Assembly (NCBI GenBank): GCA_002385885.1
Contig: DGEI01000027.1
Coordinates: 7,530-71,529, forward strand
Direction: 5' to 3'
DNA from: Firmicutes bacterium UBA3930
Lineage (GTDB): Bacteria; Bacillota; Clostridia; Caldicoprobacterales; Caldicoprobacteraceae
DNA: 64,000 bases
The stretch's first letter is position 1. Each line of letters begins with the position of its first letter. Both the position numbers and the translations under genes were made by a program. Below are positions 578 to 26,330 of the stretch, piece by piece. The notes below the pieces were generated by a model, which worked only from the letters and a program-made list of their open reading frames with translations, did no database searches and had not been told where the DNA came from.

Positions 578-1951
578 TTATTCTATTACAGGGAGGCATT
601 TTAAGCCTTCTTTGAGCATTTCATCGGTATACTCTATATCCTCAAGATGATTATTAAAGTAAGCTTCATAGGCTGTGAGATCAAAATGCCCATGCCCGCT
701 TAAGCAAAACAAAATAGCCTTTGCCTCGCCTGATTCCCTGCACCTCACAGCTTCATCAATAGCTGCTTTAATGGCATGTGCCGATTCAGGCGCCGGAAGT
801 ATTCCTTCGGCCCTGGCAAATTTAATGGCGCTTTCAAATACAGCCTTTTGAAAAACAGCCCGGGCTTCAATCAATCCATCATTATATAATTGGCTTACCA
901 GTGCCGAATCGCCGTGATAGCGAAGCCCGCCGGCGTGAATACCCGGTGGGACAAATCCATGCCCCAATGTATACATCGATACGATTGGCGCCATTCTGGC
1001 CGTATCGCCGTAATCATATGCAAAAACACCTTTGGTCAATGTGGGACAGGCTGCCGGTTCTACTGCAATAGCCTGAACTTTTGCCCCGTTTCTTATCTTA
1101 TCCATCAGAAAGGGAAAACTAATGCCGGCAAAATTACTTCCGCCGCCGCAGCACCCGATGATTATATCGGGATACTCATCGATCTTTTCCATTTGAAGTT
1201 TTGCTTCCTGGCCGATTATAGTCTGGTGAAGTATTACATGGTTTAGAACGCTTCCAAGAGCATAGTTGGTATCATCATGGGTGGCTGCGTCTTCAACGGC
1301 TTCGCTTATAGCTATGCCCAGGCTTCCCAATGAATCGGGGTTTTCAGCCAGTGTCCTTCTGCCGGCCTCGGTGTTTTGGCTGGGGCTGGGTATAACGGTA
1401 GCGCCGTAAGTTTCCATCAGCATCTTCCGGTAAGGCTTTTGCTGATAGCTGACCTTAACCATGTACACAGTACATTCCAGATCAAACATGCTTGCTGCAA
1501 TACTTAATGCTGAACCCCACTGTCCGGCTCCGGTCTCGGTTGCCAGTCTTCTTACTCCCGATATCTTGTTATAGTATACCTGGGGGATGGCAGTGTTTAA
1601 TTTATGGCTGCCCGAGGGTGTCACACCTTCATACTTATAATAGATCCTTGCGGGGGTATCCAGTTCCTGCTCCAGGCGGTACGCCCTGCATAGGGGGGAC
1701 GGCCTGAAGGATTTGTACAATTCCTGAACTTCTTCAGGGATATCAATAAATCGTTCTGTAGTGACTTCCTGAAGGATCAAATCTTTAGGAAATATGGATG
1801 AAAGATCGTCAGGTGTAACGGGTTTCTTGGTTGCCGGATTCAATGCCGGCTTTAAAGGTGTGGGCAGATCAGCCTGAATGTTGTACCAACTGGTCGGAAG
1901 CTCCTGTTCAGATAAGTATACTCTGTAGGGAACTCTTCTCTTCTCTCTCAT
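578..1951 (-). CDS. TrpB-like PLP-dependent enzyme (tryptophan synthase beta-like, TrpB2 type), stand-alone
   Basis: N-terminus has [17 protein letters not shown] and the body has GSHKLNTA (PLP lysine) and [11 protein letters not shown]. Start chosen at the second ATG after AGGAG; 1960 is an alternative. The ORF-track start at 2020 has no RBS. No trpA is adjacent. Confidence 0.85.
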
Positions 1952-2377
1952 AATTCTCATCTCTCCTCTTATATAATTTTTATTGTTTACCATTGTACAC
2001 AAAAGAGGAGAAAAAAACAAGTATTATTTTGGCATTGTAAAGTGCAAAAAATGTTCTACCTCAATATAAAAAATGGAAATTATGGAAGCTCGTGCAAAAA
2101 AACTTGTGTAAAGAATTATTATATGATATAATTTTAACAAATAACAATATCAGATCAAACCTTAACAAAAGTCATATTTATAATGAGTTCATGCAAGTCT
2201 TTTGGTTTTTTTATTAGTAAATGATGTTTCATTAAATATAAAATAAATACCGAACTCTGTCCGGGCAAAACGCTGTGGTGTATTATACGGGATATTTATC
2301 CGGTTGTATGCAATTGGAATTGAATTATTAATTTGCTGTTTTCATATTGTTCCATGAAAAAGAGAGTAGGCGAAATA

Positions 2378-4987
2378 ATGGTTAAGGGAATTATCAGGAC
2401 AATTCCTGAGAAATGTGTGCAGTGTTATGCATGCGTACGCAATTGTCCTGTAAAGGCCGTGGCCATCCGGGACGGAAAGGCACAGATAATACAGGAAAGG
2501 TGCATTCACTGTGGGAACTGCGTTGATATTTGTTCCCAAAATGCAAAGGAGGTCTTAAACGGGACAGGCAACACACTGCATTTAATAGAGAAAGGAAATG
2601 CAATAGCCATAGTTGCACCCTCCTTTCCTGCGGCATTTAACGGCAGGGTGGGAAAGTTCCCATGCGCTCTCCGGAAGCTGGGCTTCGTACAGGTATGGGA
2701 AGTAGCGACAGGTGCAGAGCTTGTGGTGGAGGCGTGTAGATCTTTTCAATTTGGGGATCATCCATACATCAGTTCATCCTGTCCGGCAGTTGTTAATCTG
2801 ATAGAAAGGCACTACTCCCAGTTTGTGCCCTATCTCATTCCGGTAGTTTCACCCGCAATTGCAACTGCCAGGTTAATAAGGCATTGTTATCCAAATGACA
2901 GCTTCAATATAGTATTTATTGGGCCATGTATTGCAAAGAAAGGAGAGATCCGTCAATCCTCTGTCAGTGGGGATATTCAGGAAGTCCTTACATATGCAGA
3001 ACTTGACGAACTGCTTAAACTCAAAGGGATTGACTGGAACGGCTTAAATGAGGGATCTTTTGACGGGCCCCGGGCATCCCTTGCATACTCCTTTCCAATA
3101 TCCGGCGGACTTTTAAGGAATTTAAACCGTACCCAGGATATACTTCAGGAGGAATATGCAGTAATTGATGGTATGAAGAACTGGATGGATATTTTAGAGA
3201 TACTTGAACATGAGAAGAACAGGGTACGCCTTATAGACGGATTGTTTTGCAATGGGTGTATTGATGGATTTGGCATGAAGGGAAGGGGGAATATTCTGGC
3301 GAGGAAGTCGTCTCTTCTTCAGTATATACGTTCAATCCCGCTTAAAGAACAGGCTGAAGGGAAGGCATGGCTGCTTAGTGCGGACGTTGACCTGGGCCGC
3401 CGTTTTAAAGAACTGAAGGTAACCCTCCCCCAGCCTGATGAGGGGGACATAATTGAAATACTTCAGAGGACCGGCAAGGCAAAGCCTGAAGATCAGATGA
3501 ACTGCGGAGCATGCGGCTATCCATCATGCAGGGAAAAAGCAATTGCCGTATACCAGGGAATAGCAGAAGTGGAAATGTGCCTTCCTTATCTTTTGACTCA
3601 AAAAAGCCAACTGGTTGAATCCTTGGATAAAGAACTTGAAATGATCCGGGAACTTAAAAAAGAGCTGGATATCCTTATTGATGCTTCCTATGATGGAATA
3701 TGTATGACCGATAACCGTGGGAATATCCAAAGAGTAAACCGTACTTTTGAACAGTTTGTCGGTATTGATGAAGAAAAGCTTATAGGGCTGAATATGTCTT
3801 TCCTGGAAAAGGAGAACTTATTATTCCCTTCGGTTACTATGGCGGTGGTAAGAGCTAAAAAAGCCGTAACCTTTGTTCAAAGCCTGCATACCGGTAAGAA
3901 GATACTAGCCACCGGTAATCCTGTAATGGATGAAGATGGGAACATTGTGAGAATAATTGCCAATCTTCGTGATTTTGATCTGATGCAGAAGATACGGGAA
4001 GAACTGGACAATGTTTACCATCCGTCTGTCATTGAAAAAATTGATAAGGATAATCCAATTATTGCATTGAGCCGGGAATTTACCAGGATTTTGGAGATGG
4101 CTGCACGGGTGGCCGTGGCAGATTCGAATGTACTTATACTGGGTGAATCAGGAGTGGGAAAAGAGGTTATTGCCCGATTTATTCATAAAAACAGTCCAAG
4201 GGCCAATGGCCCGTTCGTAAAGATAAACTGCAGCGCACTACCCGAATCCCTGATAGAATCCGAATTGTTCGGTTATGAAACCGGCGCTTTTACAGGAGCC
4301 AGTCCCAAAGGGAAACCCGGCTTATTTGAAGTTGCCCAGGGTGGAACTCTGCTTTTGGATGAAATGGGTGAACTGCCCCTTTCGCAGCAGGCCAAATTAT
4401 TACAGGTAATTCAGGAAAAGCAGGCATTTCGTATAGGTGGTACCAAACCGCGGAAAATAGATGTTCGTATTCTGGCTGCCACCAACAGGGATTTGGCAGC
4501 TATGGTTAAGGAAGGAAATTTCCGTGCCGATCTGTTCTATAGATTGAATGTTATACCTATCCGTATTCCACCATTGAGAGAACGAAGGGATGATATTATA
4601 CCTCTGATGTACTTTTTCCTGGAACGGTATAACAAGCGTTATAATAAAGAATGCAGAATGTCAAAAGAAGCAAAAGAGGTTTTTATGCAGTACTACTGGC
4701 CGGGGAACGTACGGGAGCTGGAAAATATGGTGGAACGGTTGGTTGTCATAGCACAGAAAAATATAATTGATGTTGATGATTTGCCGCCTGTTATGAAAAA
4801 ACCCTATGAACCCGAAGAAATACTTGTGCTTCGGGAGATACTGCCCCTTAAGCAGGTGCTGGAGGAAGCAGAAAGGCAGCTGCTCATGAAAGCCAGGAGC
4901 GTTTACAACAGCACATATAAGATGGCACAGGCCTTGGGTGTTAACCAATCAACAGTAGTGCGAAAGCTGAAAAAATATTTCGATTAG
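2378..4987 (+). CDS. Sigma-54-dependent transcriptional activator with N-terminal ferredoxin + [FeFe]-hydrogenase-like (HydS-like) sensory domain, Fe-S motif, PAS, AAA+ and HTH
   Basis: Two CxxCxxCxxxCP motifs and degenerate H-cluster motifs SSSCPAV / GPCIAKKGE / FCNGCIDGFG. Also a CGACGYPSC..C motif, Walker A GESGVGKE, GAFTGA (4283-4300) and a C-terminal HTH (QALGVNQSTVVRKLKK). The start (M16 of the ORF-track protein) is uncertain. Confidence 0.85.
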   Translation: MVKGIIRTIPEKCVQCYACVRNCPVKAVAIRDGKAQIIQERCIHCGNCVDICSQNAKEVLNGTGNTLHLIEKGNAIAIVAPSFPAAFNGRVGKFPCALRKLGFVQVWEVATGAELVVEACRSFQFGDHPYISSSCPAVVNLIERHYSQFVPYLIPVVSPAIATARLIRHCYPNDSFNIVFIGPCIAKKGEIRQSSVSGDIQEVLTYAELDELLKLKGIDWNGLNEGSFDGPRASLAYSFPISGGLLRNLNRTQDILQEEYAVIDGMKNWMDILEILEHEKNRVRLIDGLFCNGCIDGFGMKGRGNILARKSSLLQYIRSIPLKEQAEGKAWLLSADVDLGRRFKELKVTLPQPDEGDIIEILQRTGKAKPEDQMNCGACGYPSCREKAIAVYQGIAEVEMCLPYLLTQKSQLVESLDKELEMIRELKKELDILIDASYDGICMTDNRGNIQRVNRTFEQFVGIDEEKLIGLNMSFLEKENLLFPSVTMAVVRAKKAVTFVQSLHTGKKILATGNPVMDEDGNIVRIIANLRDFDLMQKIREELDNVYHPSVIEKIDKDNPIIALSREFTRILEMAARVAVADSNVLILGESGVGKEVIARFIHKNSPRANGPFVKINCSALPESLIESELFGYETGAFTGASPKGKPGLFEVAQGGTLLLDEMGELPLSQQAKLLQVIQEKQAFRIGGTKPRKIDVRILAATNRDLAAMVKEGNFRADLFYRLNVIPIRIPPLRERRDDIIPLMYFFLERYNKRYNKECRMSKEAKEVFMQYYWPGNVRELENMVERLVVIAQKNIIDVDDLPPVMKKPYEPEEILVLREILPLKQVLEEAERQLLMKARSVYNSTYKMAQALGVNQSTVVRKLKKYFD

Positions 4988-5014
4988 AATTCATCCGGTA
5001 GTATAATGCAAAAA

Positions 5015-5058
5015 GGCATAAATGATGCAATTATGCATCATTTATGCCTTTTAATTTT
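5015..5058 (+). terminator. Rho-independent terminator after the sigma-54 activator gene
   Basis: Perfect 15-bp stem GGCATAAATGATGCA/TGCATCATTTATGCC (5015-5029/5034-5048), 4-nt loop, then TTTTAATTTTAT. Confidence 0.85.
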
Positions 5059-5177
5059 ATATGAGGATAGAAGGGTATAATGACCCGGATATGGAATGGT
5101 TTCAGGCCATATAGGCTTTTTTTGCCGGTATGTACTGGCATTTTTATTGAAAAAAGCATTTCTTTCTTTGGTACATA

Positions 5178-5193
5178 ATGCAATTCTGCATCA
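5178..5193 (+). promoter_or_regulatory. Candidate upstream activator site for the sigma-54 activator (ATGCAATTCTGCATCA)
   Basis: This 16-mer matches 15/16 with ATGCAATTATGCATCA at 5025-5040. It lies about 125 nt upstream of the -24/-12 promoter, a typical EBP distance. Confidence 0.35.
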
Positions 5194-5304
5194 AACCACC
5201 GGAAAGGTTATGTCTTTAGGTATGAAGCAGTTTTTTTATAATCCTGTAAACCCCTTGACAGAGCCAAAAAATTACTTATGACATTTTTGTTGTCAAAAAA
5301 AAAT

Positions 5305-5320
5305 TGGCATGGTTTTTGCT
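5305..5320 (+). promoter_or_regulatory. Sigma-54 (-24/-12) promoter of the hydrogenase operon
   Basis: TGGCATGGTTTTTGCT matches TGGCAC-N5-TTGCW with exact GG/GC spacing. It sits 45 nt upstream of the hndA-like ATG and immediately downstream of a sigma-54 activator gene. Confidence 0.8.
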
Positions 5321-5364
5321 GTTATATATTAGTAGAAGAATAAAGGAGGGCAGGTGTATAGCCA

Positions 5365-5871
5365 ATGGAGGTAAGGCAAGTCGATAATCCTGATGTTCAG
5401 AGGCAAAAAGTAGAGGACATTATATCGGCATACAGGGATAAGCCGGGAGCGCTTATACCGGTATTGCACGAAATTCAAAACGCTTTAGGGTATCTGCCTC
5501 GCTGGGTTCAGTACAGGGTATCCAATATCATGAATATTCCTGTCAGTGAAGTAAACAGCATTATAAGTTTTTATGCCTTGTTTTCTGAAAAACCAAAAGG
5601 AGAATATGCGATTGGTGTTTGCAAGGGAACGGCCTGTTATGTGCGTGGTGCGGATAAGATTATTGAAAAACTGGAAGAAGAGCTGGGCATAGAAGCGGGA
5701 GATACCACGCCTGACGGCAAATTTTCAATTGAGGTGATGCGCTGCCTTGGAGCCTGCGGTTTAGGTCCCGTTATGGTAATAAACGATGATATCTACACAA
5801 GAATTAAACCCGACAAGGTAAAGGACATAATAAATGCCATACGGCAGAAGGATGGGAGTGAGACCACATGA
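5365..5871 (+). CDS. NuoE-like [2Fe-2S] subunit of multimeric [FeFe] hydrogenase (HndA/HydC type)
   Basis: Cys motifs CKGTAC and CLGACGLGP. The stop overlaps the next start (ATGA). Confidence 0.9.
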   Translation: MEVRQVDNPDVQRQKVEDIISAYRDKPGALIPVLHEIQNALGYLPRWVQYRVSNIMNIPVSEVNSIISFYALFSEKPKGEYAIGVCKGTACYVRGADKIIEKLEEELGIEAGDTTPDGKFSIEVMRCLGACGLGPVMVINDDIYTRIKPDKVKDIINAIRQKDGSETT

Positions 5872-6239
5872 CATCTATGGAAGTGTATAACAGGCTTAAG
5901 GAAAACGTACTGAAGACGAAACGGGAATATGATGAAGGCTATATAAGCATAGTGATTCAGCTGGGGATATGCAGCCAGGCTGCAGGTGCAGTGGAAGTTG
6001 TAAAGGCTCTGGAAGAGGCCATATTTCATCAGGGTATAAAGAATGTAGTTATAACTAAAACCGGTTGTGCGGGATTTTGTGCCTATGAGCCTGTGGTAAC
6101 GATAAAAAGAAAGGGCTCTAAACCGGTTACCTACTGTCGGGTGACGCCCGACAAAGCCCGGATCCTGGTGTCCGAGTATGCGCTTAAAGGGCGGATCATT
6201 CAATCCTGGACATTGATGGGGAAGGATGTGATGCTGTAA
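5868..6239 (+). CDS. Thioredoxin-like [2Fe-2S] ferredoxin subunit (HndB-like)
   Basis: 123-aa ORF translationally coupled on both sides. It has a GCAGFCAYEP-type motif and the position expected in an hnd-type operon. Confidence 0.75.
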   Translation: MTSMEVYNRLKENVLKTKREYDEGYISIVIQLGICSQAAGAVEVVKALEEAIFHQGIKNVVITKTGCAGFCAYEPVVTIKRKGSKPVTYCRVTPDKARILVSEYALKGRIIQSWTLMGKDVML

Positions 6240-9200
6240 TGGAAATGTACAGAAATCATGTGCTGGTATGCGGAGGTGGCGGTTGTCAATCCTCGGGATG
6301 CCAGATCATCCGTGACAGGCTTATTGAAAGTATTAAGGATAAAGGACTGGAAGAGGAAATTAAAGTAATTGTTACAGGGTGTATGGGACCCTGCTCGCTG
6401 GGCCCTATGATGATAGTGTATCCCGAAGGTGTATTTTACTGTAAGCTGATTCCTGAATATGTGGATGATATAGTTGAAAAGCATCTATATCAGGGGACAC
6501 CGGCAGAGGAATATTTCTACAGGGATCCATATACCGGCGAGGCAATGGCTACTGTTCATGAAATTCCCTTTTTTACAAGGCAGAAAAAAATAGCATTAAG
6601 AAACGTTGGAACGATTGATCCATTAAATATAGATGAGTATATTGCATTCAACGGATATTTTGCTTTGGGAAGGGTGGTTACCCGGTTTACTCCGAAAGAA
6701 ACAATTGAAATTATAAAAAGATCCGGATTGAGAGGAAGAGGCGGAGCGGGTTTTCCCGCAGGGCTTAAATGGGAATTTACTGCTGAGGCTCAGGGAACGC
6801 CCAAATACGTGGTTTGCAACGCGGATGAAGGAGATCCGGGGGCTTTCATGGACAGAAGTATAATAGAGGGAGATCCACATACATTGATCGAGGGTATGGC
6901 CATTGCCGGATATGCTGTTGGTGCAAATCAGGGGTATGTCTATATTCGGGCCGAGTATCCGATGGCAGTGAAGCACCTTGAAAATGCAATAAGGCAGGCA
7001 AGGGAATACGGTTTGCTGGGATCAAATATACTGGGGACCGGGTTTGATTTTGATTTGGAGATCCGGGTAGGAGCAGGAGCATTTGTATGCGGGGAAGAGA
7101 CTGCGCTTCTGGCATCGGTTGAAGGCAAACGGGGTGAACCAAGGCCTAAGCCTCCGTTCCCGGCGCAGCAGGGTTTGTGGGGCAAACCTACACTTCTTAG
7201 CAATGTTGAGACATATGCCAATGTTCCTGCCATCATCCTGGAAGGCCCCGAGTGGTTCAGAAGCATAGGGACCGGGAAGAGCCCCGGAACAAAAGTGTTT
7301 GCCCTGGCAGGCCAGGTTGAGAACACCGGTTTGGTTGAAGTTCCCATGGGGACACCTCTTGGAGACATTATATTTGATATCGGCAGCGGAATTATCGATA
7401 AAAAGGAATTTAAAGGTGCTCAGACCGGCGGTCCTTCAGGGGGATGCATTCCTGCCGGCGGGCTTAACGTACCGGTGGATTACGAATCCCTGAGGGACTG
7501 GGGCACCATAATGGGTTCGGGGGGCCTCATCGTTATGGATGAAAATACCTGTATGGTAGACCTTGCCAAGTTCTTCCTGGAATTCTGTCAGGATGAATCC
7601 TGCGGCAAGTGTACCCCCTGCCGGTTGGGGACAAAAAGAATGCTGGAGATACTTCAGAGAATAAGCGAGGGCAAAGGCCGGGAAGGCGACATTGAAAAGC
7701 TCATTGAACTTGGTGAGGATATTATGGACACCGCACTGTGCGGTTTAGGTCAGACCGCTCCAAACCCGGTGCTTAATACCATCCGGTATTTCAGGCAGGA
7801 GTATGAAGAGCACATTCACCATAAATACTGCAGGGCTTCGGTATGTGCATCGCTTTTTGATGCACCGTGTCAGAATGCCTGTCCTGCAGGAGTAGATGTG
7901 CCTCAGTATATAGAGTATATACAGAGGGGAATGTATATGGAGGCGGTAAACAGTATCCGGGAGATGAATCCGTTTCCATCTGTATGCGGCAGGGTATGTA
8001 CCCATCCATGCGAGGCAAGGTGCAGGAGGGCACAACTGGATGAGCCTTTGGCTATCCGCAGCCTAAAAAGGTTTGCAGCAGATTATGAGCTTGAGCACGC
8101 TGATGCATTTTATTTTGATTTGGAAAGAGAAGGCAAAACTAAAAAGGGTAAGAAGGTGGCAGTTATAGGAGGAGGGCCTGCCGGGCTTACTGCTGCCTAT
8201 TATCTGGCAATATGGGGATATGACGTCACTATATTTGAAGCTTCCCAAAGACTGGGGGGGATGTTGAATTATGCCATTCCTCCGTATCGTCTGCCCAATG
8301 ATGTGCTGCATAAGGAGATCGATATAATACTCAAGTCGGGTGTAAATGTTATTACCGGTATTAAGGTGGGAGCTGACATAAGCCTGGATGTAATAAGAAA
8401 GAGCTTTGATGCCGTGTTTATGGGGATCGGCACTCAGCAGCCGGTAAAGCTTGGGGTTAAAGGTGAAGACGCCGAGGGTGTCATGACTGCGCTGGAATTT
8501 TTACGGATGATAAATGAGGGAAATATGCCAAGCGTCGGGAGGAAAGTTGTTGTTATTGGCGGCGGAAGTACTGCCTTTGATGCCGCGCGATCGGCTTTGA
8601 GACTGGGTGCCGAGGAAGTTGCCATTCTTTACAGAAGGAGCAGGTGGGATATGCCGGCGCTGCCCGAAGAAAAGATACATGCAGCCGAGGAAGGGGTAAA
8701 GATCTATGACTATATTGCACCTTTGGAGATCATAGTGGATCGCCATGGGAGGATGGAAGGGCTGCGCTGTATACGTATGGCAAAGGGTGAATTTGACAGC
8801 AGCGCCAGGCGAAGGCCGGTACCTATAAAGGGTTCGGAATTCAGGATGGATGCTGATACACTGCTTATAGCCATAGGTGCCCAGGGTGAGGTAGAAGGAT
8901 TTGGAGAGATAAAATCTACCAGGTGGAAGACATTTGAAGTCAACCGGGAAACCCTTGAAACTTCTTTAAAAGGTGTGTTTGCCGGTGGAGATTGTGTGCG
9001 TGGGCCTGACACGGTGATACAATCCATAGCCGATGGACGAAAAGCGGCTTTAGCCATTGACCGGTACCTGGGAGGAAACCGGATAGAGGCTGAAAAGGCG
9101 CGCAGAGAAAGGAAGCGGCAGTATTTTGCAACAATTATAGAAAACGAGCAGTCAAGGCTTACAATACCCGTGCTTGAGCCTGAAGAAAGAAAGAGAAATT

Positions 9201-9280
9201 TTGATGAAATAGAACTGCCCTTCGACCACAGAATCTGTCAGCAGGAGGCATTTCGCTGCCTGCGCTGCGATGTGAGATGA
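6239..9280 (+). CDS. NuoF-like flavoprotein subunit (HndC/HydB type) fused to a C-terminal GltD/NfnB-like NAD(P)H-FAD oxidoreductase module
   Basis: N-terminal 2Fe-2S thioredoxin-like fold (VLVCGGGGC, GCMGPC) and NuoF motifs GLRGRGGAGFPAGLKWEF, NADEGDPGAF, ESCGKCTPCR. From about 7825 there are GltD-type Fe-S motifs (CQNACPAG, CGRVCTHPCEARC) and two dinucleotide folds (VAVIGGGPAGLTAA, VVVIGGGSTAFDAA). Confidence 0.9.
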   Translation: MEMYRNHVLVCGGGGCQSSGCQIIRDRLIESIKDKGLEEEIKVIVTGCMGPCSLGPMMIVYPEGVFYCKLIPEYVDDIVEKHLYQGTPAEEYFYRDPYTGEAMATVHEIPFFTRQKKIALRNVGTIDPLNIDEYIAFNGYFALGRVVTRFTPKETIEIIKRSGLRGRGGAGFPAGLKWEFTAEAQGTPKYVVCNADEGDPGAFMDRSIIEGDPHTLIEGMAIAGYAVGANQGYVYIRAEYPMAVKHLENAIRQAREYGLLGSNILGTGFDFDLEIRVGAGAFVCGEETALLASVEGKRGEPRPKPPFPAQQGLWGKPTLLSNVETYANVPAIILEGPEWFRSIGTGKSPGTKVFALAGQVENTGLVEVPMGTPLGDIIFDIGSGIIDKKEFKGAQTGGPSGGCIPAGGLNVPVDYESLRDWGTIMGSGGLIVMDENTCMVDLAKFFLEFCQDESCGKCTPCRLGTKRMLEILQRISEGKGREGDIEKLIELGEDIMDTALCGLGQTAPNPVLNTIRYFRQEYEEHIHHKYCRASVCASLFDAPCQNACPAGVDVPQYIEYIQRGMYMEAVNSIREMNPFPSVCGRVCTHPCEARCRRAQLDEPLAIRSLKRFAADYELEHADAFYFDLEREGKTKKGKKVAVIGGGPAGLTAAYYLAIWGYDVTIFEASQRLGGMLNYAIPPYRLPNDVLHKEIDIILKSGVNVITGIKVGADISLDVIRKSFDAVFMGIGTQQPVKLGVKGEDAEGVMTALEFLRMINEGNMPSVGRKVVVIGGGSTAFDAARSALRLGAEEVAILYRRSRWDMPALPEEKIHAAEEGVKIYDYIAPLEIIVDRHGRMEGLRCIRMAKGEFDSSARRRPVPIKGSEFRMDADTLLIAIGAQGEVEGFGEIKSTRWKTFEVNRETLETSLKGVFAGGDCVRGPDTVIQSIADGRKAALAIDRYLGGNRIEAEKARRERKRQYFATIIENEQSRLTIPVLEPEERKRNFDEIELPFDHRICQQEAFRCLRCDVR

Positions 9281-9297
9281 GAGGGAGGGATTGAATA

Positions 9298-11055
9298 ATG
9301 CAGATAAAAATAAACGGAGTCGTATCAGAGGTACAACCCGGAATGACCATACTTGAAGCTGCCAGGGAAATGGGAATTGATATCCCTACCCTTTGTTACC
9401 TTGAAGGTGTGCATGAAGCTGGCGCCTGCCGTGTATGCATTGTAGAGGTCAAAGGAGCCAGAACCCTGGTACCTGCTTGTATAACCGAAGCAGCAGATGG
9501 TATGGAAATCTTCACACATACTTCGAGGGTAAGGCGGGCCCGAAGGACGATAATAGAGCTTATGCTTTCCGATCATCCCGATGAATGCCTGACCTGCGGA
9601 AAGAACAATCAGTGTGAGCTGCAAAAACTGGCCAGAGCCATGAATATACAGGAAAGAAAGTATGAGGGCGAGTATTCCTCAAGGGTGATAGATGACGGGT
9701 CTCCGGCAGTGATCAGGGATTCGGGCAAATGTATACTTTGCCGCCGGTGCCTTAGCGTATGCAGTATGATACAGGATGTGAATGCCATAGCTCCTATTGG
9801 CCGGGGTTTTAAAACTGTTATTGCACCGGCAGGGAAGGAGCCTATAAACCAGTCACCTTGCGTACAGTGCGGCCAGTGCGTAAATGTATGCCCAACAGGG
9901 GCCATCATTGAAAAAAGTGATGTTATCAGGGTATGGGAGGCATTGGAAGATCCGCGGAAGCACGTTGTAGTACAGGTTGCCCCGGCGGTAAGGGTGGCAA
10001 TTGGAGAAGTTTTTGGTCTGGAACCCGGAACATCCGTTACCTGGAAAATGGTTTCTGCTCTAAAGAAACTTGGATTTGACAGGGTATTTGATACCAACTT
10101 TACGGCTGATTTAACAATCATGGAAGAGGGAAGCGAGCTTATACAAAGAATTAATGAAGGTGGCAGGCTGCCAATGATTACATCCTGCAGCCCGGGCTGG
10201 ATAAATTACATGGAATACTTCTTCCCGCAGCTTGTTGAACATCTGTCCACCTGCAAATCACCTCAGCAGATGTTTGGAGCCGTTATTAAGACTTACTATG
10301 CTGATAAGGCCGGAATACCGGCTGAGAACATATTTGCAGTATCGGTTATGCCCTGTACCGCTAAAAAATATGAGAGCCAGCGGCCGGAAATGTATTCAAG
10401 CGGATACCGGGATGTTGATGCTGTGCTGACCACCAGGGAGTTGGGAGCTATGCTTAAGGAAGCCGGAATTGACCTGTTATCATGCGGCGAAGAAACTTTT
10501 GATCAGCCGTTTGGAGCCGGCAGCGGCGCAGGGGCTATATTCGGGAACACCGGCGGTGTCATGGAGGCAGCTTTAAGAACGGTATATGAAATACTGACCG
10601 GTGATGAGCTTGATAATTTGAATTTCCATCAGGTAAGAGGGTTAACCGGAGTTAAAGAAACTAGTGTAAAAATAGGAGGCAGGGAGTTTTCGGTTGCAGT
10701 AGTGCATGGCCTTGGGAATATCAGAAAAATATTGGAAGATATTGATAAGGGAAGGAGCAGATATCATTTTATTGAAGTCATGTGTTGTCCCGGAGGATGT
10801 ATTGGGGGCGGCGGCCAGCCCATTTCAAAAGATCCCGGGATAAAGGAAAAGCGTATTGCAGGTTTGTATAGGGAGGATGAGGGGCTTCCTGTTCGAAAGT
10901 CCCATGAAAATCCTGCAGTACAGGAACTGTATCGGGAATTTTTGGGCCATCCCCTTGGACACAGATCCCATGAGCTGCTGCATACCCGATATAGAAACCG
11001 AAGGGAGCAGGAATATGAGAACCATTGGAAGACAGACAGTTTGTCCAAAGCTTAG
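9298..11055 (+). CDS. hydA: [FeFe] hydrogenase catalytic subunit (M3-type, HndD/HydA)
   Basis: N-terminal 2Fe-2S domain, an HxxxCxxC..C cluster and two CxxCxxCxxxCP motifs. H-cluster motifs are TSCSPGW (L1, atypical), MPCTAKKYE (L2) and EVMCCPGGCIGGGGQP (L3). GGGAGGG RBS. Confidence 0.9.
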   Translation: MQIKINGVVSEVQPGMTILEAAREMGIDIPTLCYLEGVHEAGACRVCIVEVKGARTLVPACITEAADGMEIFTHTSRVRRARRTIIELMLSDHPDECLTCGKNNQCELQKLARAMNIQERKYEGEYSSRVIDDGSPAVIRDSGKCILCRRCLSVCSMIQDVNAIAPIGRGFKTVIAPAGKEPINQSPCVQCGQCVNVCPTGAIIEKSDVIRVWEALEDPRKHVVVQVAPAVRVAIGEVFGLEPGTSVTWKMVSALKKLGFDRVFDTNFTADLTIMEEGSELIQRINEGGRLPMITSCSPGWINYMEYFFPQLVEHLSTCKSPQQMFGAVIKTYYADKAGIPAENIFAVSVMPCTAKKYESQRPEMYSSGYRDVDAVLTTRELGAMLKEAGIDLLSCGEETFDQPFGAGSGAGAIFGNTGGVMEAALRTVYEILTGDELDNLNFHQVRGLTGVKETSVKIGGREFSVAVVHGLGNIRKILEDIDKGRSRYHFIEVMCCPGGCIGGGGQPISKDPGIKEKRIAGLYREDEGLPVRKSHENPAVQELYREFLGHPLGHRSHELLHTRYRNRREQEYENHWKTDSLSKA

Positions 11056-11121
11056 CCGATATTGCTTTATAAGAATATAATAGAATCAGAAGAATTCAGT
11101 TTTATATTAAAAGCTGCGGCG

Positions 11122-11175
11122 ACAGACAGGCAGCATGGCATATCATGCATGGCCTGTCTGTTATTTTTCTGTTTA
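11122..11175 (+). terminator. Rho-independent terminator of the hydrogenase operon
   Basis: 10-bp stem ACAGACAGGC/GCCTGTCTGT (11122-11131/11152-11161) followed by TATTTTTCTGTTTATTT. Confidence 0.75.
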
Positions 11176-11358
11176 TTTCATTATAAAAATGGCATTGCCG
11201 ATATGCCTTTTCAGGCAGGAGCATGGCAATTTACCTTATAATGTTATATAATGATCTCAGGTTTGGATTTGCGTTTTTTGAAGGTTGGCGGGCATATATC
11301 ATTTTATATGGTTATATGCTTGACAGTTGGTTTATAACAAGAAAAGGAGGTTTTTAAT

Positions 11359-12240
11359 ATGCCGGAAAACCAATTGGAGTTAGTCATTGATGCTAAAGCC
11401 ACATTAGGTGAGGGACCATGTTGGGACAATGATAAGCAGCTGCTTTATTGGGTGGATATTATGGGGGGAAATGTACATATCTATAATCCCAAAACTGGAA
11501 ACAACCGGACCATTCATGTAGACGGGTATCCCGGTACGGTAGTTCCAAGAGAGTCAGGTGGCCTGGTTGTGGCTATGAATCAGGGATTTTATGCGTTGGA
11601 TTTGGCTGCAGAAGAGCTTACTCTTCTGGTTAAGGCTGAGAACGAGCCGGACACCAACCGGTTTAATGACGGAAAATGTGATGCTTCCGGCAGATTCTGG
11701 GCAGGAACCATGCCTATGAGGAGCTCAGAACCTGCAGGCAACCTTTATTTTCTGGACCACGGTTTGAATGTTACACATGTATTGGATGGTATTTCCTGCT
11801 CTAACGGTATTGCATGGACCGGGGACAATAAAACCATGTACTACATAGATACGCCTACCAGGCAGGTTGTTGCCTTTGATTTTGATCTGTCTGCCGGAAA
11901 AATAAAGAACAAGAGAGCCGTGGTGACAATTCCTCCCGGAGAAGGGTCACCCGATGGGATGACTATTGATTCTGAAGGTATGATATGGGTTGCCCAGTGG
12001 GGCGGCAGCAAGGTGTCACGATGGAATCCGCAAAACGGTGAAAGACTGGAGATCATCCCGGTTCCGGCAGAGCGGGTTACTTCCTGTACTTTTGGGGGGG
12101 AAAACCTTGACGAATTATACATAACAACAGCCCGCATCGGTTTGAGTAATGAAGAGCTTCAACAACAGCCTTATGCAGGAGGAGTATTCAGGATTAAGGT
12201 TGGTGTGAAGGGAACAAAGAGTTATTCTTTCAGAGGGTAA
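11359..12240 (+). CDS. SMP-30/gluconolactonase/LRE-family protein
   Basis: 293 aa with a regucalcin-like repeat pattern (GEGPCWD, NDGKCD, PDGMTID, ITTA). AAGGAGG RBS. Confidence 0.8.
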   Translation: MPENQLELVIDAKATLGEGPCWDNDKQLLYWVDIMGGNVHIYNPKTGNNRTIHVDGYPGTVVPRESGGLVVAMNQGFYALDLAAEELTLLVKAENEPDTNRFNDGKCDASGRFWAGTMPMRSSEPAGNLYFLDHGLNVTHVLDGISCSNGIAWTGDNKTMYYIDTPTRQVVAFDFDLSAGKIKNKRAVVTIPPGEGSPDGMTIDSEGMIWVAQWGGSKVSRWNPQNGERLEIIPVPAERVTSCTFGGENLDELYITTARIGLSNEELQQQPYAGGVFRIKVGVKGTKSYSFRG

Positions 12241-12313
12241 TCTGTGATCGCAGCGGTAAAGCTTAATAAGTATTATTAAATCAAAAACCCGATGGATTTT
12301 CTTATAGGAGAGT

Positions 12314-12346
12314 AAAAGGCTGAAACTGTTCAGCCTTTTGTTTATT
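12314..12346 (+). terminator. Rho-independent terminator
   Basis: Stem GGCTGAA/TTCAGCC with a 4-nt loop, flanked by an A-run and by TTTTGTTTATT. Confidence 0.75.
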
Positions 12347-12473
12347 CTGAAGTGCATGTATATGCTTGTTTAAAGCTGCCGTTTATTCAGAAAATGGCAG
12401 AGTATAAACCTACAAAAATTGGGGAATTATTGAAGTAAAGCATTATCGTCAATAATAGGGGAGTTTTTGTTGT

Positions 12474-12737
12474 ATGAAAATTGATGAATTGTTGAAGGTA
12501 TATACAATAGAAGGAAATGAAAAACTGGATAAACAATATACCGGAACCCGGAAAGCCATTATGGAGCTTGCCGGAGACAAGGTGCGGGAATTTATCGTGA
12601 CGGCTGATGTGGGCTTGGATGCGGAAAGCAGAAATATTTTGGTATGTGTAATCTCCCGGAGCATGATGCAGAGTTTTTCACTGGGATACGGCATAGGCAA
12701 AATTGAGGGTAAGACCGACAGGCAGATATACTTGTAG
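12474..12737 (+). CDS. Hypothetical small protein (87 aa)
   Basis: ORF with an AGGGGAG RBS about 10 nt upstream. I recognise no motif. The overlapping minus-strand ORF has a junk-like composition. Confidence 0.4.
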   Translation: MKIDELLKVYTIEGNEKLDKQYTGTRKAIMELAGDKVREFIVTADVGLDAESRNILVCVISRSMMQSFSLGYGIGKIEGKTDRQIYL

Positions 12738-12903
12738 AAATATGGCGAATTATCACGAAAATATAAGCCGGTTGTATGGACATTCATCATCCGAAAAGGT
12801 ATAATTAAAATGAAGCTGTACGGAAAAATGCTTGCAATTGGTTAATTCTTGATATAAGTCAACTCTGTTATGGCAAAATCGGGGTTTGGGGGCAGGTTAG
12901 TAT

Positions 12904-13035
12904 ATGAAGGGCAGCACCTCAAAGCTGTTAAAAAGAGAGATTATAATCCTACTCTGCATAGTACTGGTTTCCATAATATTGTACTATATATTTTCATGCT
13001 GCACATATAAGGTATTTTTGCCGGATTTTTTTTAA
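12904..13035 (+). other. 43-codon ORF encoding a TM helix; probable detached N-terminus of the downstream PP2C sensor
   Basis: Encodes MKGSTSKLLKREIIILLCIVLVSIILYYIFSCCTYKVFLPDFF and stops inside the T8 run at 13026-13033. One extra T would fuse it in frame to the 13071 ORF. Confidence 0.55.
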
Positions 13036-13070
13036 CATGGCATTTATTTTTAGAATTTTCCAGCATTGTT

Positions 13071-14585
13071 ATGTCATTTTCGGTTTTTGCTATTACATAT
13101 TATACATACGAGGAGTCCAACCGGTTAAGGTCCATAATAATAGCCTGCACCTTTTTAGCCGTTTCACTGCTGGATCTGTTTCATATCTTTTCCTATAAGG
13201 GGATGCCGGTTTTTTTGACGGAAGCATCACCAGACAAGGCAACTGCATTTTGGATCCTTGCCCGTTTGACAATGAGCATAGGGTTGTTTATTGCCACTCT
13301 GATACCATGTGAGAAAAAGGTAAAACGCAGTCAGCAGGGGTTATGGGCAGTGATGACGATAATCTATTCAGTTTACTGGCTTCTGTCGGTAAGCTACCAT
13401 ATTGACTTATTCCCACCCTTGTTTATAGAGGGCCAGGGTTTGACCCCTCTTAAAATATATCTTGAATATTCTGTAGTATTCATACAGGTTATAACCGCTG
13501 CTCTGTTTTTTGTTGCTTTTATTAAAGGTGATTGCGAAGATATCGGACATATCCATGTTGTAAGAGCTCTTGTATTCAGTATTTTCAGTGAGATAGCTTT
13601 TACCCGTTATAATAATGTCTATGACACATATAATTACCTCGGCCATCTTTATAAGATTGTTGCTTATTATATACTATTCAGGGCATTATTTGTACAAAAC
13701 GTGCAAAAGCCCTATCAGGATCTTCGCACTGCTGAGAGGAAGCTTAGTGTTTATGTAGATAACCTGGAGCAGCTGGTGGCTATAAGAACAGATGAAATAA
13801 CCCAGGCAAACAGGAGTTTGATGAGAAACCTGGATTATGCAAAGAATATTCTTCTTGCCCTTCTTCCTGCCAGTTTTCCTGTTATAAAGGGTACGGAGTT
13901 TGCGGCCAAGTATATGCCGTGTGAAAAGGTGGGGGGCGACTTTTATAACGTGTTCAGGCTGGACGAGCAAAATGTTGGAATTCTTATTGGAGATGTAGCC
14001 GGACATGGTGTTTCGGCTGCCATGATCAATGTATTCATTAATCAGAATATATTCTTTAAAAAGGAATACGATGATGGGAGGCAACAGATATTTACTCCCA
14101 GGGGCGTTCTGATGAACTGTTATCACAAGTATAACGAGATGCCTTTTCCCGAAGAGGTTTACGTTGTCATGTTATATGGAATATATAATGTGATCACCGG
14201 CGAATTTACATACGCATCGGCAGGAATGAATACCAGTCCGCTGATCTTAAAGGCAGATGGCCGGGTAGCTGTTCTGGAAACAGACGGATTTCCCATATGC
14301 AAATTCGGATCACACTACAAACCGTCCTATCAGAGCAGGACAGCGCATTTAAGCCCCGGCGACGCCCTTATACTATACACTGATGGGCTTATCGAAATTG
14401 ATCCGAGAAAACCTGACCGGTTTTCCCGGGAACAGCTTGTACAGTTTATAACGGGTCTTAAGGATATTACTGCCCAGGAAATATGCGATGAAATCAGTGA
14501 TGCATACCATGCATTACGTGAGGACCAGGAAATGACAGATGATGTAACAATTCTGGTTGTTAAGGCAGGTAATGCCAATGTATAA
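13071..14585 (+). CDS. Membrane sensor (MASE3-like multi-TM domain) fused to PP2C/SpoIIE-type serine phosphatase
   Basis: The N-terminal half has many TM helices and a LLDLFHIFSYKGMPVF-type motif. The C-terminal half has GGDFY, GDVAGHGVSAAM, LYTDGL and DDVTILV. The conserved helix HLFLEFSSIV lies in frame upstream of the annotated ATG, so the true start is upstream. Confidence 0.85.
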   Translation: MSFSVFAITYYTYEESNRLRSIIIACTFLAVSLLDLFHIFSYKGMPVFLTEASPDKATAFWILARLTMSIGLFIATLIPCEKKVKRSQQGLWAVMTIIYSVYWLLSVSYHIDLFPPLFIEGQGLTPLKIYLEYSVVFIQVITAALFFVAFIKGDCEDIGHIHVVRALVFSIFSEIAFTRYNNVYDTYNYLGHLYKIVAYYILFRALFVQNVQKPYQDLRTAERKLSVYVDNLEQLVAIRTDEITQANRSLMRNLDYAKNILLALLPASFPVIKGTEFAAKYMPCEKVGGDFYNVFRLDEQNVGILIGDVAGHGVSAAMINVFINQNIFFKKEYDDGRQQIFTPRGVLMNCYHKYNEMPFPEEVYVVMLYGIYNVITGEFTYASAGMNTSPLILKADGRVAVLETDGFPICKFGSHYKPSYQSRTAHLSPGDALILYTDGLIEIDPRKPDRFSREQLVQFITGLKDITAQEICDEISDAYHALREDQEMTDDVTILVVKAGNANV

Positions 14586-14711
14586 TCCGATTGTGAGAAC
14601 CTGACCGCAGGGGAATATAGCCTGAGCGAGAGGGGGGAACGGTTTATAGAGGCATGATTATGCTGCAGTGAAACGTTTGTAAAAACACAAGGGTTGATGG
14701 AGGTATAAGTT

Positions 14712-14972
14712 TTGGAAAAGAGACTTGGAGTTATAGGGATTGTGGTTGACTGCCCGGATGAGACCGGTACTCAGGTAAGTAAATATATAAGTGAGTTTTC
14801 TTCTATAATTGTAGGGCGTATGGGCATTCCTTACCGCCAAAGAGGCGTGTCGGTGATTGCTCTTATAGTGGAAGGCACTACCGATGAGATAGGCGCTCTT
14901 ACCGGTAAGTTGGGAAACCTGGACGGAGTTACCGTCAAGAGTGCATTAACATCAAAAAAATTTATTGAGTAG
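14712..14972 (+). CDS. TM1266-family putative iron-only hydrogenase system regulator (small ACT/NikR-C-like protein)
   Basis: 86 aa with a TTG start 9 nt after GGAGG. The motif DEIGALTGKLGNLDGVTVK is characteristic of this family as I recall it. Confidence 0.75.
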   Translation: MEKRLGVIGIVVDCPDETGTQVSKYISEFSSIIVGRMGIPYRQRGVSVIALIVEGTTDEIGALTGKLGNLDGVTVKSALTSKKFIE

Positions 14973-14987
14973 GGAGACGATGATATT

Positions 14988-15521
14988 ATGAACAAGACTG
15001 TTATTTTTATTGCCAGGACTGCTATTCTATTGGCTCTGGCTGTGCTGTTTCAGTCGTTAAGGCTGTTTATTCCCATTCCTGCTGCAGTTGACCAGTATTT
15101 GGTTGGTTCCCTGGTTAATATGTGCCTGGTTGTTGCAGCGGTGATAGTTGGCATTCAGGGTGGATTAATAGTTGCTGTTCTGACGCCGGTTATTGCTTTT
15201 TTACAGAATGTGCTGGCAAACCCTGTTTTAGTTCCTTTTGTGGCGTTGGGAAATGCGGCAATTGTGGTAGTAGCAGCGCTGCTGTACAAAAGGAATAAAT
15301 ATGTTTCAATAATACTTGGCGCATTATCCAAATTCATAGTGCTGTATATCACGGTAGTGCACATTGCTATACCTGTTTTGCTTGGAAATATGCCGCCGCA
15401 GATGAAAGAGCTGATGTCTTTGAGGTTTAGCTGGCCGCAGCTGGTAACAGCCCTGGTAGGAAGCTGGTTGGCAGTGATGGTATTGCCATTGCTGAAAAGG
15501 GCATTGAAACCTTTATCGTAA
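14988..15521 (+). CDS. Integral membrane protein, ECF-transporter S-component-like
   Basis: 177 aa with about 5-6 hydrophobic helices. Size and pattern fit an S component; the substrate is unknown. Confidence 0.55.
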   Translation: MNKTVIFIARTAILLALAVLFQSLRLFIPIPAAVDQYLVGSLVNMCLVVAAVIVGIQGGLIVAVLTPVIAFLQNVLANPVLVPFVALGNAAIVVVAALLYKRNKYVSIILGALSKFIVLYITVVHIAIPVLLGNMPPQMKELMSLRFSWPQLVTALVGSWLAVMVLPLLKRALKPLS

Positions 15522-15561
15522 GCTGCTTTATATTCGTTGTGCCGGGATTGATAAGGAAGAC

Positions 15562-15595
15562 AAAGGGCCTGGATTAACAGGCCCTTTATCTTTCC
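15562..15595. terminator. Bidirectional terminator between convergent genes
   Basis: 10-bp stem AAAGGGCCTG/CAGGCCCTTT with a 6-nt loop and A/T runs on both sides. Confidence 0.75.
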
Positions 15596-15607
15596 GGTCT
15601 CTTGCTG

Positions 15608-16636: not shown

Positions 16637-16953
16637 AGAATTCCTCCTTAATTATATGAAGTTCATGTCACGCAAGTCAGTACAAGAAATATAAAATAGA
16701 AAAACAGATGATTCAATTCAAAACGCACATTCCATATAAGGCTTAATATCATAAAGAAGAACAGTACGTTTGTACCATTAAACATATCAGTTGGTTTGGC
16801 AAAAAGCATAAATGGCTCACCATCCTATATGGTTTCTCTACCCATATTATGCGGTTAAACCAAAAGTGTGCACGAAAACATCCAAAAGGTGTCAGATTTC
16901 CGTTTCCTGAATAATATGTAATAAGACCATATTGTTTTGGAGGGATGGCGCTA

Positions 16954-17181: not shown

Positions 17182-17261
17182 ACGAATTTTCCTAAACCCT
17201 TAACAACTTGCCTTGAGCATACATAGAATGTATCAGGCGCAAGCTGAAGGGGGGGAATTTT

Positions 17262-26290: not shown

Positions 26291-26330
26291 TTATATGACA
26301 GAACCAGAAAATGTTTTAAGGGGGAGCGGT

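Follow-up and report, generated by a model that had tools for sequence, protein, structure and literature searches.

A group-C-type [FeFe] hydrogenase module fused to a sigma-54 activator upstream of a hydrogenase operon: a candidate one-component H2 sensor

In one well-studied H2-sensing cascade, that formed by a regulatory hydrogenase with HoxJ and HoxA, activation takes place in response to H2, and the Ralstonia HoxBC–HoxJ–HoxA cascade works through sigma-54. HoxBC–HoxJ–HoxA and HupUV–HupT–HupR (HydDB group 2b) follow a common logic, in which H2 is sensed by a catalytically slow hydrogenase and hydrogenase operons are turned on by an activator of the NtrC family, and they do so with three or four proteins, a [NiFe] sensor and a phosphorelay. 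The group C [FeFe] hydrogenases, in which the H-domain is accompanied by a PAS domain, have a putative sensory role, and their partners and signalling path need identifying (PMC13104023, PMC8924675). HydDB divides the group into kinase-linked (C1), chemotaxis-linked (C2) and phosphatase-linked (C3) subclasses (PMC5037454). Here we describe a gene at 2378–4987 on the forward strand of a 64,000-nucleotide stretch of the Firmicutes bacterium UBA3930 genome (contig DGEI01000027.1; the whole stretch is termed the window below) whose product joins a HydS-like hydrogenase module to a sigma-54 enhancer-binding protein (bEBP). We think it reasonably probable that the gene encodes a one-component, hydrogenase-derived sensor-activator of the adjacent operon. 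Such a protein would follow the logic of the group 2b cascades but with a single chain, a sensor of [FeFe] type and no phosphorylation domain.

Several described proteins resemble parts of this arrangement. TmHydS of Thermotoga maritima (group C, M2f) likewise has a 2x[4Fe-4S] region, a four-ligand H-domain, a C-terminal Cx2Cx4Cx16C motif and a PAS domain, and it too has lost the relay cysteine C299 and carries a small residue at M353 and a residue other than methionine at M497 (hydrogenase residues are given in CpI numbering). TmHydS ends after the PAS domain, however, whereas the window protein carries an AAA+ and helix-turn-helix (HTH) output on the same chain; the third cluster motif of the latter is also one residue shorter and its C299 equivalent is serine rather than alanine. 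NorR and OrpR are one-component sigma-54 activators in which an N-terminal metal centre directly controls the AAA+ module (PMC2941729, PMC8359166). A hydrogenase fold is absent from both: NorR detects NO with a mononuclear iron that is housed in a GAF domain, and OrpR detects redox state with an Fe-S cluster on a PAS domain. FhlA is a one-component sigma-54 activator of a hydrogenase operon and has the same AAA+/HTH core (NCBIfam), but it senses formate via GAF domains and its NCBIfam model scores the window protein at 255.5 against a cut-off of 830. TherJR_2992 of Thermincola potens JR is, like the window protein, a Fer4–Fe_hyd_lg_C–FeS sigma-54 activator, but of a form with HTH_8 and no PAS domain.

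In the survey of clostridial sigma-54 activators by Nie et al. 2019, the regulatory domains named include Fer4, Fe_hyd_lg_C and FeS, and the supplement gives TherJR_2992 as a domain string, one of 431 activators, outside the 39 regulon groups and with no motif, function or hydrogenase target. An earlier, preliminary description of the window gene, made by eye from the sequence, had it that sensory hydrogenases are described as coupled to kinases, chemotaxis receptors or phosphatases and not fused directly to a sigma-54 activator. This corresponds to HydDB C1 to C3, and the one mention of the sigma-54 fusion that we found is that of Nie et al., in a row of the supplementary domain table and in a figure legend. 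The same description knew of no experimental work on the fusion, and our full-text literature search found no study of a HydS–sigma-54 fusion either, although many subscription papers lie outside its coverage and an earlier mention is possible. The HydS sensor, the bEBP and the logic seen in the [NiFe] regulatory hydrogenase/HoxJ/HoxA cascade are thus known already; what appears undescribed is that the two are fused directly, together with the DNA targets predicted for the fusion and its link to several hydrogenase classes.

The open reading frame (ORF) of the regulator spans 2333..4987 (+), and translation from the ATG at 2378 gives a product of 869 amino acids (aa). Homologues have their first residues at an equivalent M-x-x-I-I-x-T-x-x-x-K-C-x-Q-C-Y-A-C, which makes this ATG the likely start and bears out the start and length assumed in the preliminary description. 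The gene and its parts are:

2378..4987 (+), HydS-like sensor and sigma-54 enhancer-binding protein fusion gene (ORF; Pfam architecture; at least 118 protein clusters of like build)
2396..2545 (+; aa 7-56), 2x[4Fe-4S] ferredoxin-like F-cluster domain with two CxxCxxCxxxCP motifs (Pfam Fer4_10/Fer4/Fer4_7)
2600..3268 (+; aa 75-297), [FeFe]-hydrogenase H-domain (Pfam PF02906, Fe_hyd_lg_C; alignments; model)
2780-2782, 2927-2929, 3248-3250 and 3257-3259 (+), codons of the H-cluster ligand cysteines C135, C184, C291 and C294 (alignments)
3494..3586 (+; aa 373-403), C-terminal Fe-S motif CGACGYPSC-x16-C, with C376, C379, C384 and C401 (Pfam PF04060, E = 1.1e-10)
3581..3685 (+; aa 402-436), long predicted helix joining the Fe-S motif to the PAS domain (secondary structure of the full-length model)
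3668..3973 (+; aa 431-532), PAS domain (Pfam PAS/PAS_9)
4061..4807 (+; aa 562-810), sigma-54 AAA+ module and lid, with Walker A GESGVGKE, GAFTGA and Walker B DE (Pfam PF00158; PF25601, AAA_lid_14)
4847..4978 (+; aa 824-867), C-terminal helix-turn-helix (Pfam HTH_50, E = 5.1e-12; HTH_8 weak)

Pfam recovers every domain that the preliminary description had named, in the order in which it named them (Fer4, H-domain, Fe-S, PAS, AAA+, HTH). The Fe_hyd_lg_C match (E = 2.8e-44) is significant, its 152 bits exceeding the cut-off of 22.1, Sigma54_activat (PF00158) covers aa 562-728 with E = 6.8e-68, and Fer4, PF04060, PAS and HTH_8/HTH_50 are matched as well. The C-terminal Fe-S motif has the spacing Cx2Cx4Cx16C, and the M2f layout (N-terminal 2x[4Fe-4S], a C-terminal [4Fe-4S] motif and then PAS; PMC13104023) is found in the regulator by Pfam. 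Neither HisKA nor HATPase is found in the regulator by Pfam, so that it lacks the output by which HydDB subclass C1 is recognised; its output is Sigma54_activat plus HTH. The named NCBIfam sigma-54 equivalogs (PrdR, NifA, AtoC, NorR, FhlA and others) were rejected as identities for the protein, since all score far under their cut-offs and match the C-terminal half only, the best of them being PrdR with 399.9 bits against a cut-off of 795 over aa 417-867.

The H-domain was aligned by profile to solved hydrogenases and to the HydA protein encoded downstream in the window. C135, C184, C291 and C294 align to C300, C355, C499 and C503. The sequence I-S-S-S-C-P falls on T-S-C-C-P, with the relay cysteine C299 replaced by S134 and the ligand C300 kept; F-I-G-P-C-I-A-K-K-G-E falls on M-P-C-x-x-K-x-x-E, with M353 replaced by G182 and C355, K358 (K187) and E361 (E190) kept; and L-F-C-N-G-C falls on M-x-C-P-G-G-C, with M497 replaced by L289 and both cysteines retained. 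S82 is a retained equivalent of S232. The alignments agree with the preliminary description in reading SSSCPAV as TSCCPxW with the relay cysteine changed to serine, and GPCIAKKGE as MPCxxKxxE. Its reading of the third motif as CxxGC needs correction: the residues are C-N-G-C, one fewer than in the catalytic C-x-G-G-C. In sensory enzymes C299 is mostly replaced by alanine (about 10% proline and about 10% serine) and M353 by glycine, serine or threonine, while the residue at M497 varies (PMC10055695, PMC10407848); serine, glycine and leucine at these three positions match this pattern, so that the loss of the relay together with retention of the ligands was rightly taken as sensory in type.

Eighty-six related sensor-type domains were collected from species-representative genomes and metagenomes, and the four ligand cysteines, on whose retention the preliminary description had staked its reading, are invariant in all of them. 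The equivalents of K358, E361 and S232 are invariant in 11/11 PAS-type sigma-54 members and that of P231 (P81) shows no variation in either the full-length or the N-terminal alignments. The shortened C-x-G-C motif is common to the PAS-type sigma-54 proteins and their histidine-kinase-fused relatives, whilst stand-alone HydS-like proteins of ~580 aa keep the canonical C-x-G-G-C spacing. All eight ferredoxin cysteines are invariant in two N-terminal alignments (A2, A4); in the full-length alignment of 58 sequences (A3) this holds for the second four, with the first four conserved to at least 90%. With the four cysteines of the C-terminal Fe-S motif invariant in all three alignments, the 16 cluster-ligand cysteines each reach 90% conservation or more, 12 being invariant, in 58 full-length members reaching down to 44% identity.

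An AlphaFold model of aa 1-414 (pLDDT 90.8, pTM 0.91) returned [FeFe] hydrogenases as all of its top 50 PDB matches, with TM scores of 0.62-0.72 normalised to the query. A fold search with the full-length model was set aside as evidence on the sensor, as the AAA+ domain dominates its matches, and the N-terminal module was searched separately. The best explanation of these features is that the N-terminal 410 residues make up a group-C-type (HydS) [FeFe] hydrogenase module with four cluster ligands and no proton relay. That an H-cluster is assembled in this domain, with H2 as its signal, is the hypothesis that the remaining comparisons bear upon.

The output half is, by its sequence, a complete sigma-54 enhancer-binding protein. 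Across the 58 full-length members the Walker A residues G589, G592, G594 and K595, the GAFTGA residues G636, F638, G640 and A641, the Walker B residue E662 and the arginine fingers R716 and R722 are all invariant, and Foldseek aligns the modelled AAA+ domain to those of FleQ, FlrC and NtrC1 with a TM score of 0.94. Because it contains no receiver domain, the regulator constitutes a one-component system.

Proteins of this build are not rare. A full-length search returned at least 118 clusters (clustering at 90% identity), the most distant of them 42% identical to the query. All have the architecture of the window protein and go in their sources only by the names 'sigma 54-interacting transcriptional regulator' or 'PAS domain S-box protein'; among the sources that are named are Thermoanaerobacteraceae, Tepidanaerobacteraceae, Thermovenabulum, Caloranaerobacter, Alkaliphilus, Wukongibacter, Lucifera, Halanaerobiales, Mahellales and Peptococcaceae. 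Clustering at 50% identity leaves ~16 representatives that comprise a form of ~870 aa with PAS and a form of ~740 aa without it. When the sensor module alone is used as query, kinase-fused proteins rank first at ~45% identity, with the layout Fer4, Fe_hyd_lg_C, FeS, HisKA, HATPase, which by its domains corresponds to HydDB class C1. These C1 proteins are the closest sensor relatives of the regulator, share its C-x-G-C motif and often lie beside the same type of hydrogenase operon, but they have a HisKA and HATPase output and need a separate response regulator.

The best 80 loci of a genome scan with one genome per species include 23 sigma-54-type, 34 kinase-type and 25 stand-alone sensors, counts that are samples rather than censuses (individual loci are cited below by L numbers). 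In a rough neighbour-joining tree, built without support values or HydDB reference sequences, the nearest relatives of the sensor are kinase-fused and stand-alone HydS-like proteins, distant from the outgroup of catalytic HydA. The sigma-54 proteins of Firmicutes form one group, whether or not they have PAS, beside the stand-alone sensors, whilst a Desulfuromonadales sigma-54 group is placed among the kinase types, so the sigma-54 fusion may have arisen more than once.

The regulator gene is followed, across a gap at 4988-5364, by four co-directional genes that include a catalytic hydrogenase gene, as the preliminary description had said of its position directly upstream of a hydrogenase operon. 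The elements of the gap and the operon genes are:

5011..5052 (+), terminator-like hairpin with a 19-bp stem and T-rich tail, ending the regulator gene and holding palindrome 1
5025..5038 (no strand), palindrome 1, ATGCAATTATGCAT, a candidate activator binding site (enhancer) that lies 267 bp upstream of the -24 element
5178..5191 (no strand), palindrome 2, ATGCAATTCTGCAT, a second candidate enhancer, which lies 114 bp upstream of the -24 element
5305..5320 (+), sigma-54 -24/-12 promoter TGGCATGGTTTTTGCT (TGGCAT-N5-TTGCT), ending 44 bp before the first operon gene
5365..5871 (+), operon gene 1, NuoE/HydC-like thioredoxin-like [2Fe-2S] protein (Pfam PF01257, E = 5.3e-52)
5868..6239 (+), operon gene 2, small HndB-like [2Fe-2S] protein (weak PF01257 match, 2Fe-2S ferredoxin NCBIfam matches, conserved position)
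6239..9280 (+), operon gene 3, 1013-aa fusion of a NuoF-like flavoprotein and a GltD/NfnB-like NAD(P)H module, NuoF::GltD (Pfam Complex1_51K, NADH_4Fe-4S, Fer4_20, Pyr_redox_2)
9298..11055 (+), operon gene 4, catalytic [FeFe] hydrogenase HydA (NCBIfam FeFe_hydrog_A6; Pfam Fe_hyd_lg_C, Fe_hyd_SSU)

HydA scores 898.6 bits against the FeFe_hydrog_A6 cut-off of 765 and matches Fe_hyd_lg_C with E = 3.1e-102, and the operon probably encodes a multimeric [FeFe] hydrogenase that uses NAD(P)H. The order regulator, NuoE-like, HndB-like, NuoF::GltD, HydA is kept in 9/9 PAS-type loci with downstream DNA (the window included), although in two of them the HndB-like gene is fused to the next gene or not detected. 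The regulators of three of these loci (L002-L004) are 46-63% identical to that of the window, and those of the genome-scan loci 36-45% identical in their N-terminal parts.

The promoter at 5305-5320 was previously called perfect. It has the invariant GG and GC and the correct spacing but carries one mismatch to TGGCAC-N5-TTGCW, and sites of its quality number two in the window against 2.5 expected, so that the lone match is at chance level; its significance comes from conservation in orthologous loci. A strict [T/C]GGCA-N6-TTGC is present in the gap of 7/9 PAS-type loci, against a background of 0.054 per kb per strand, and the remaining two gaps contain the near matches AGGTATGAAAATTGCT and TGGCATATAATATGCA (relaxed pattern). 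The second site of this kind in the window, TGGCAGTCTTTTTGCT at 55706-55721 (-), was rejected: it lies antisense inside a TPR-repeat gene (54165-55910), is expected by chance and has no ATGCA-N4-TGCAT near it. No sigma-70-like promoter is seen between the terminator of the regulator gene and 5358, and Rfam gives only sub-threshold hairpin matches to the terminator in the intergenic region and no known RNA element.

The two palindromes are predicted, as candidates, to be binding sites of the regulator. Exact ATGCA-N4-TGCAT occurs twice in the 64-kb window, both times in the gap, where 0.15 sites are expected in the whole, and the looser ATGC-N6-GCAT is present in one to three copies in 9/9 orthologous gaps against a background of 0.036 per kb (1.34 Mb of loci). 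Distances such as theirs, 267 and 114 bp from the -24 element, are usual for enhancer sites. Gene order, promoter and palindrome are jointly conserved across distant Clostridia and a Halanaerobium-like genome, and the comparative evidence (gene order kept down to 46% identity, with conserved promoter and palindrome) supports the earlier proposal of a regulator-to-operon circuit in which the regulator would, almost certainly, switch on the adjacent hydrogenase operon through sigma-54. That the adjacency is a coincidence and the regulator acts elsewhere is hardly credible, for while the promoter match on its own is not significant within the window, synteny, promoter and palindrome occur together in 9/9 loci and the strict palindrome is found nowhere else in the window.

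The shorter, PAS-less subfamily (~740 aa) extends the comparison to a different enzyme. Its hosts are Paradesulfitobacterium ferrireducens, Peptococcaceae bacterium CEB3, Desulfosporosinus sp. I2, an uncultured Desulfosporosinus and a Bacillota metagenome-assembled genome, and in 5/5 loci (L021, L032, L034, L039, L042) the regulator, at ~10000-12200, precedes a [NiFe] hydrogenase operon that starts from ~12600 and encodes a small subunit with a Tat signal, a large subunit, a cytochrome b and a maturation protease (confirmed by Pfam in three loci). A sigma-54 promoter lies between regulator and operon in all five, and these gaps have a conserved palindrome of their own, TGTCTA-N5-TAGACA, the distinct sequence of which fits the different HTH (HTH_8) of the PAS-less regulators. 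At these loci an [FeFe]-type sensor thus appears, from gene order and promoter, to control a [NiFe] enzyme. Two further PAS-less genes have other neighbours: that of L024 precedes a HydS/HydABC-type cluster, and that of L023 flanks a NuoF::GltD–HydA operon with its own sigma-54 promoter.

The target enzymes share neither cofactor, subunits nor electron carriers, but only H2, and this link to unrelated hydrogenases, the strongest argument short of experiment, points to H2 as the signal. The association of sensor and hydrogenase is also older than the sigma-54 fusion, because kinase-fused relatives adjoin the same NuoF::GltD operon, directly after it, in eight loci of Spirochaetota, Planctomycetota, Armatimonadota and others. 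These kinase-type neighbours were not taken to be general sigma-54 systems, as a sigma-54 promoter is found at only 1/8 of their NuoF::GltD operons. At six other kinase-fused loci (L008, L017, L018, L026, L030, L036) an NtrC-type-like sigma-54 activator of ~450-470 aa is encoded within 4 kb of the sensor; these are presumably NtrC-type response regulators, the two-component counterpart of the fused protein. In L004 (Thermoanaerobacteraceae) a classical cluster at 1220-8732, in which HydABC is accompanied by a group-D-like HydS of 449 aa and by DRTGG, HATPase and PHP genes, is directly followed by a sigma-54-fused sensor and NuoF::GltD–HydA operon at 9001-17693, which puts two different putative H2 sensors in one organism, each beside its own hydrogenase.

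From these observations a mechanism can be proposed. HydEFG would install the H-cluster in the sensor domain, and H2, bound or slowly oxidised there, would shift the redox or conformational state of the sensor, as work on TmHydS and TamHydS leads us to expect. By analogy with NorR and DmpR, the signal would then pass through the Fe-S motif, the helix and the PAS domain to free the AAA+ module, which would oligomerise; this relay is the least certain step. The HTH is predicted, from conservation of the sites, to keep the oligomer on the ATGCA-N4-TGCAT palindromes at 5025-5038 and 5178-5191, from where ATP hydrolysis would remodel the sigma-54 RNA polymerase at 5305-5320 and allow the operon to be transcribed. 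The sign of regulation is most likely activation by H2, since the sister regulators precede [NiFe] enzymes that look like uptake hydrogenases. For the family as a whole, there is in our view a little better than an even chance that its members are one-component sigma-54 activators responsive to H2, their AAA+ ATPase being gated directly by an H-cluster. To judge by the neighbouring genes they may serve three kinds of target: NAD(P)H-linked [FeFe], [NiFe] uptake and classical HydABC-type operons.

A number of points weigh against this proposal. Four retained cysteines do not guarantee a [2Fe] subsite, since the eukaryotic Nar1/NARF proteins keep them without it. The third motif, C-x-G-C, lacks a residue that all characterised hydrogenases have, no characterised protein with this spacing was found, and cofactor binding by the variant is putative; the equivalent of Q325 is alanine or methionine. 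H2 does not reduce TamHydS's C-terminal cluster (PMC13104023), and the absence of PAS from functional-looking sister proteins weakens the PAS relay step. Palindrome 1 sits in the loop-proximal part of the terminator hairpin, which could by itself account for its symmetry. The proposed sign of regulation is taken from the sister loci, and neither hydEFG nor rpoN is among the 20 large window ORFs beyond 14 kb in a Pfam scan (a radical-SAM ORF at 43109-44494 was rejected as a hydEFG member, having a generic Radical_SAM match only). Finally, what is said of function throughout the family comes from sequence comparison.

Some of these points would be explained if the protein were a sensor of cellular redox state or Fe-S integrity rather than of H2, its H-domain holding only a [4Fe-4S] cluster in the manner of Nar1/NARF. 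The clusters would then report how far ferredoxin or NAD(P)H is reduced, or whether O2 has done damage, and hydrogenase expression would be tuned to redox load. The non-canonical third motif and the lost Q325 equivalent are in keeping with this, as are the NAD(P)H-type modules of the target enzyme and the precedent of OrpR, a sigma-54 activator that senses through an Fe-S cluster (PMC8359166). Yet the residues that hold the [2Fe] subsite (the equivalents of K358, S232, E361 and P231, and the bridging cysteine too) are invariant in the PAS-type family, and a plain [4Fe-4S] protein would need none of them. The same sensor family is, moreover, tied to both [FeFe] and [NiFe] operons, which have H2 and not an electron carrier in common, and TmHydS, a group C protein of comparable layout, takes up a working H-cluster (PMC10055695). 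We regard a redox sensor as unlikely, whilst taking it seriously.

Less likely again is an H2 sensor of the opposite sign, active at low H2 and off in its presence, with the adjoining H2-evolving enzyme made when H2 can be released. The multimeric [FeFe] hydrogenases are reversible (PMC6288185, PMC8924675), the NuoF::GltD–HydA enzyme may work in either direction, and HydS of Ruminococcus albus has been tied to regulation by H2 partial pressure (work cited in PMC8924675). The sister regulators, on the other hand, precede Tat-exported [NiFe] hydrogenases with cytochrome b, typical H2-uptake enzymes that are normally induced by their substrate. The cascade of regulatory hydrogenase, HoxJ and HoxA, likewise, activates on H2.

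It is very improbable that the PAS domain is the true input, for an unrelated small molecule, and the hydrogenase-like module a remnant or scaffold: 357/387 one-component sigma-54 activators of Clostridia are PAS-regulated (PMC6615313), but here PAS is dispensable, the ~740-aa subfamily without it keeping both sensor module and hydrogenase targets, and the conservation of the 16 cluster cysteines over 58 members, set out above, is unlike decay.

Several observations on the operon and its surroundings stand apart from this argument. Operon gene 3 joins a NuoF-like part (with FMN site and [4Fe-4S]) to a GltD/NfnB-like FAD/NAD(P)H part, a fusion that adjoins sigma-54-type sensors at L002, L004, L005, L019, L029, L033, L074 and L023 and kinase-type sensors of other phyla at L007, L010, L011, L015, L016, L027, L037 and L040. 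We found no characterised enzyme with such a subunit, and its composition suggests the use of NADPH or a three-substrate bifurcating enzyme. HydA has T-S-C-S-P-G-W at 10180-10194 (aa 295-299) instead of T-S-C-C-P-x-W; by alignment the [4Fe-4S]H ligand position Cys300 is serine and the relay Cys299 is retained. This is no sequencing error, because the L002-L004 orthologues have it as well, as does the HydA of HydABC type in L004, and no published discussion of the motif in HydA was found.

Downstream of the hydrogenase operon lies a gene for a MASE3–SpoIIE (PP2C phosphatase) membrane protein, 13071-14585 (+), which also follows the operon in the two closest relatives (L002, 19373-20628; L003, 18913-20340). 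A link to the sensor is conceivable, PP2C being the class C3 partner, but plain synteny of close relatives would account for it equally well. Further on, 26295-28546 (+) holds a 288-aa ORF and then a 461-aa GltD-like protein (Fer4_20 and Pyr_redox_2), a pair resembling an NfnAB-type transhydrogenase and therefore a separate NADPH/ferredoxin module in the same genome region.

Two sets of related sequences were left out of account. The Desulfuromonadales/Geobacteraceae fusion of 760-795 aa (L049, L060, L063, L065, L075, L077, L079) has a more degraded H-site, with LGCS for APS, DSA for SPM and YISSCIAGKFE, in which K358 is replaced by glycine; it may respond to a different signal or have lost the cofactor, and with this site and no adjoining hydrogenase gene it was not counted as support. 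The database record GCA_900198705.1 (FZPS01000018.1, L001) was rejected as context for the locus, as it matches the window only at 2405-7356 (4952 bp, 98.6% DNA identity) and is unrelated on both flanks, its 4.4-Mb contig resembling a concatenation or rearranged assembly. Its '100% identical' protein P0121 is an 842-aa call that starts 27 residues late and is without the first CxxCxxCxxxCP motif.

The [FeFe] hydrogenases of groups C and D are called sensory on indirect grounds, and a fused output permits a direct test, the more so as the predicted target, which comprises two palindromes and a single -24/-12 promoter, is exact to the base pair. If the proposed function is true, H2 would be converted into transcription without kinase, phosphatase or partner protein, and the response would be the first direct physiological read-out of a 'sensory' [FeFe] hydrogenase. 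To the kinase, chemotaxis and phosphatase classes of HydDB would be added a fourth output class, transcriptional and dependent on sigma-54, and a compact pair of H2-responsive activator and promoter would serve the engineering of anaerobes. Beyond what the preliminary description envisaged, the family is fairly large and widespread and has sister members that appear to control [NiFe] hydrogenases, which would make it a case of a single sensor type wired to unrelated hydrogenases.

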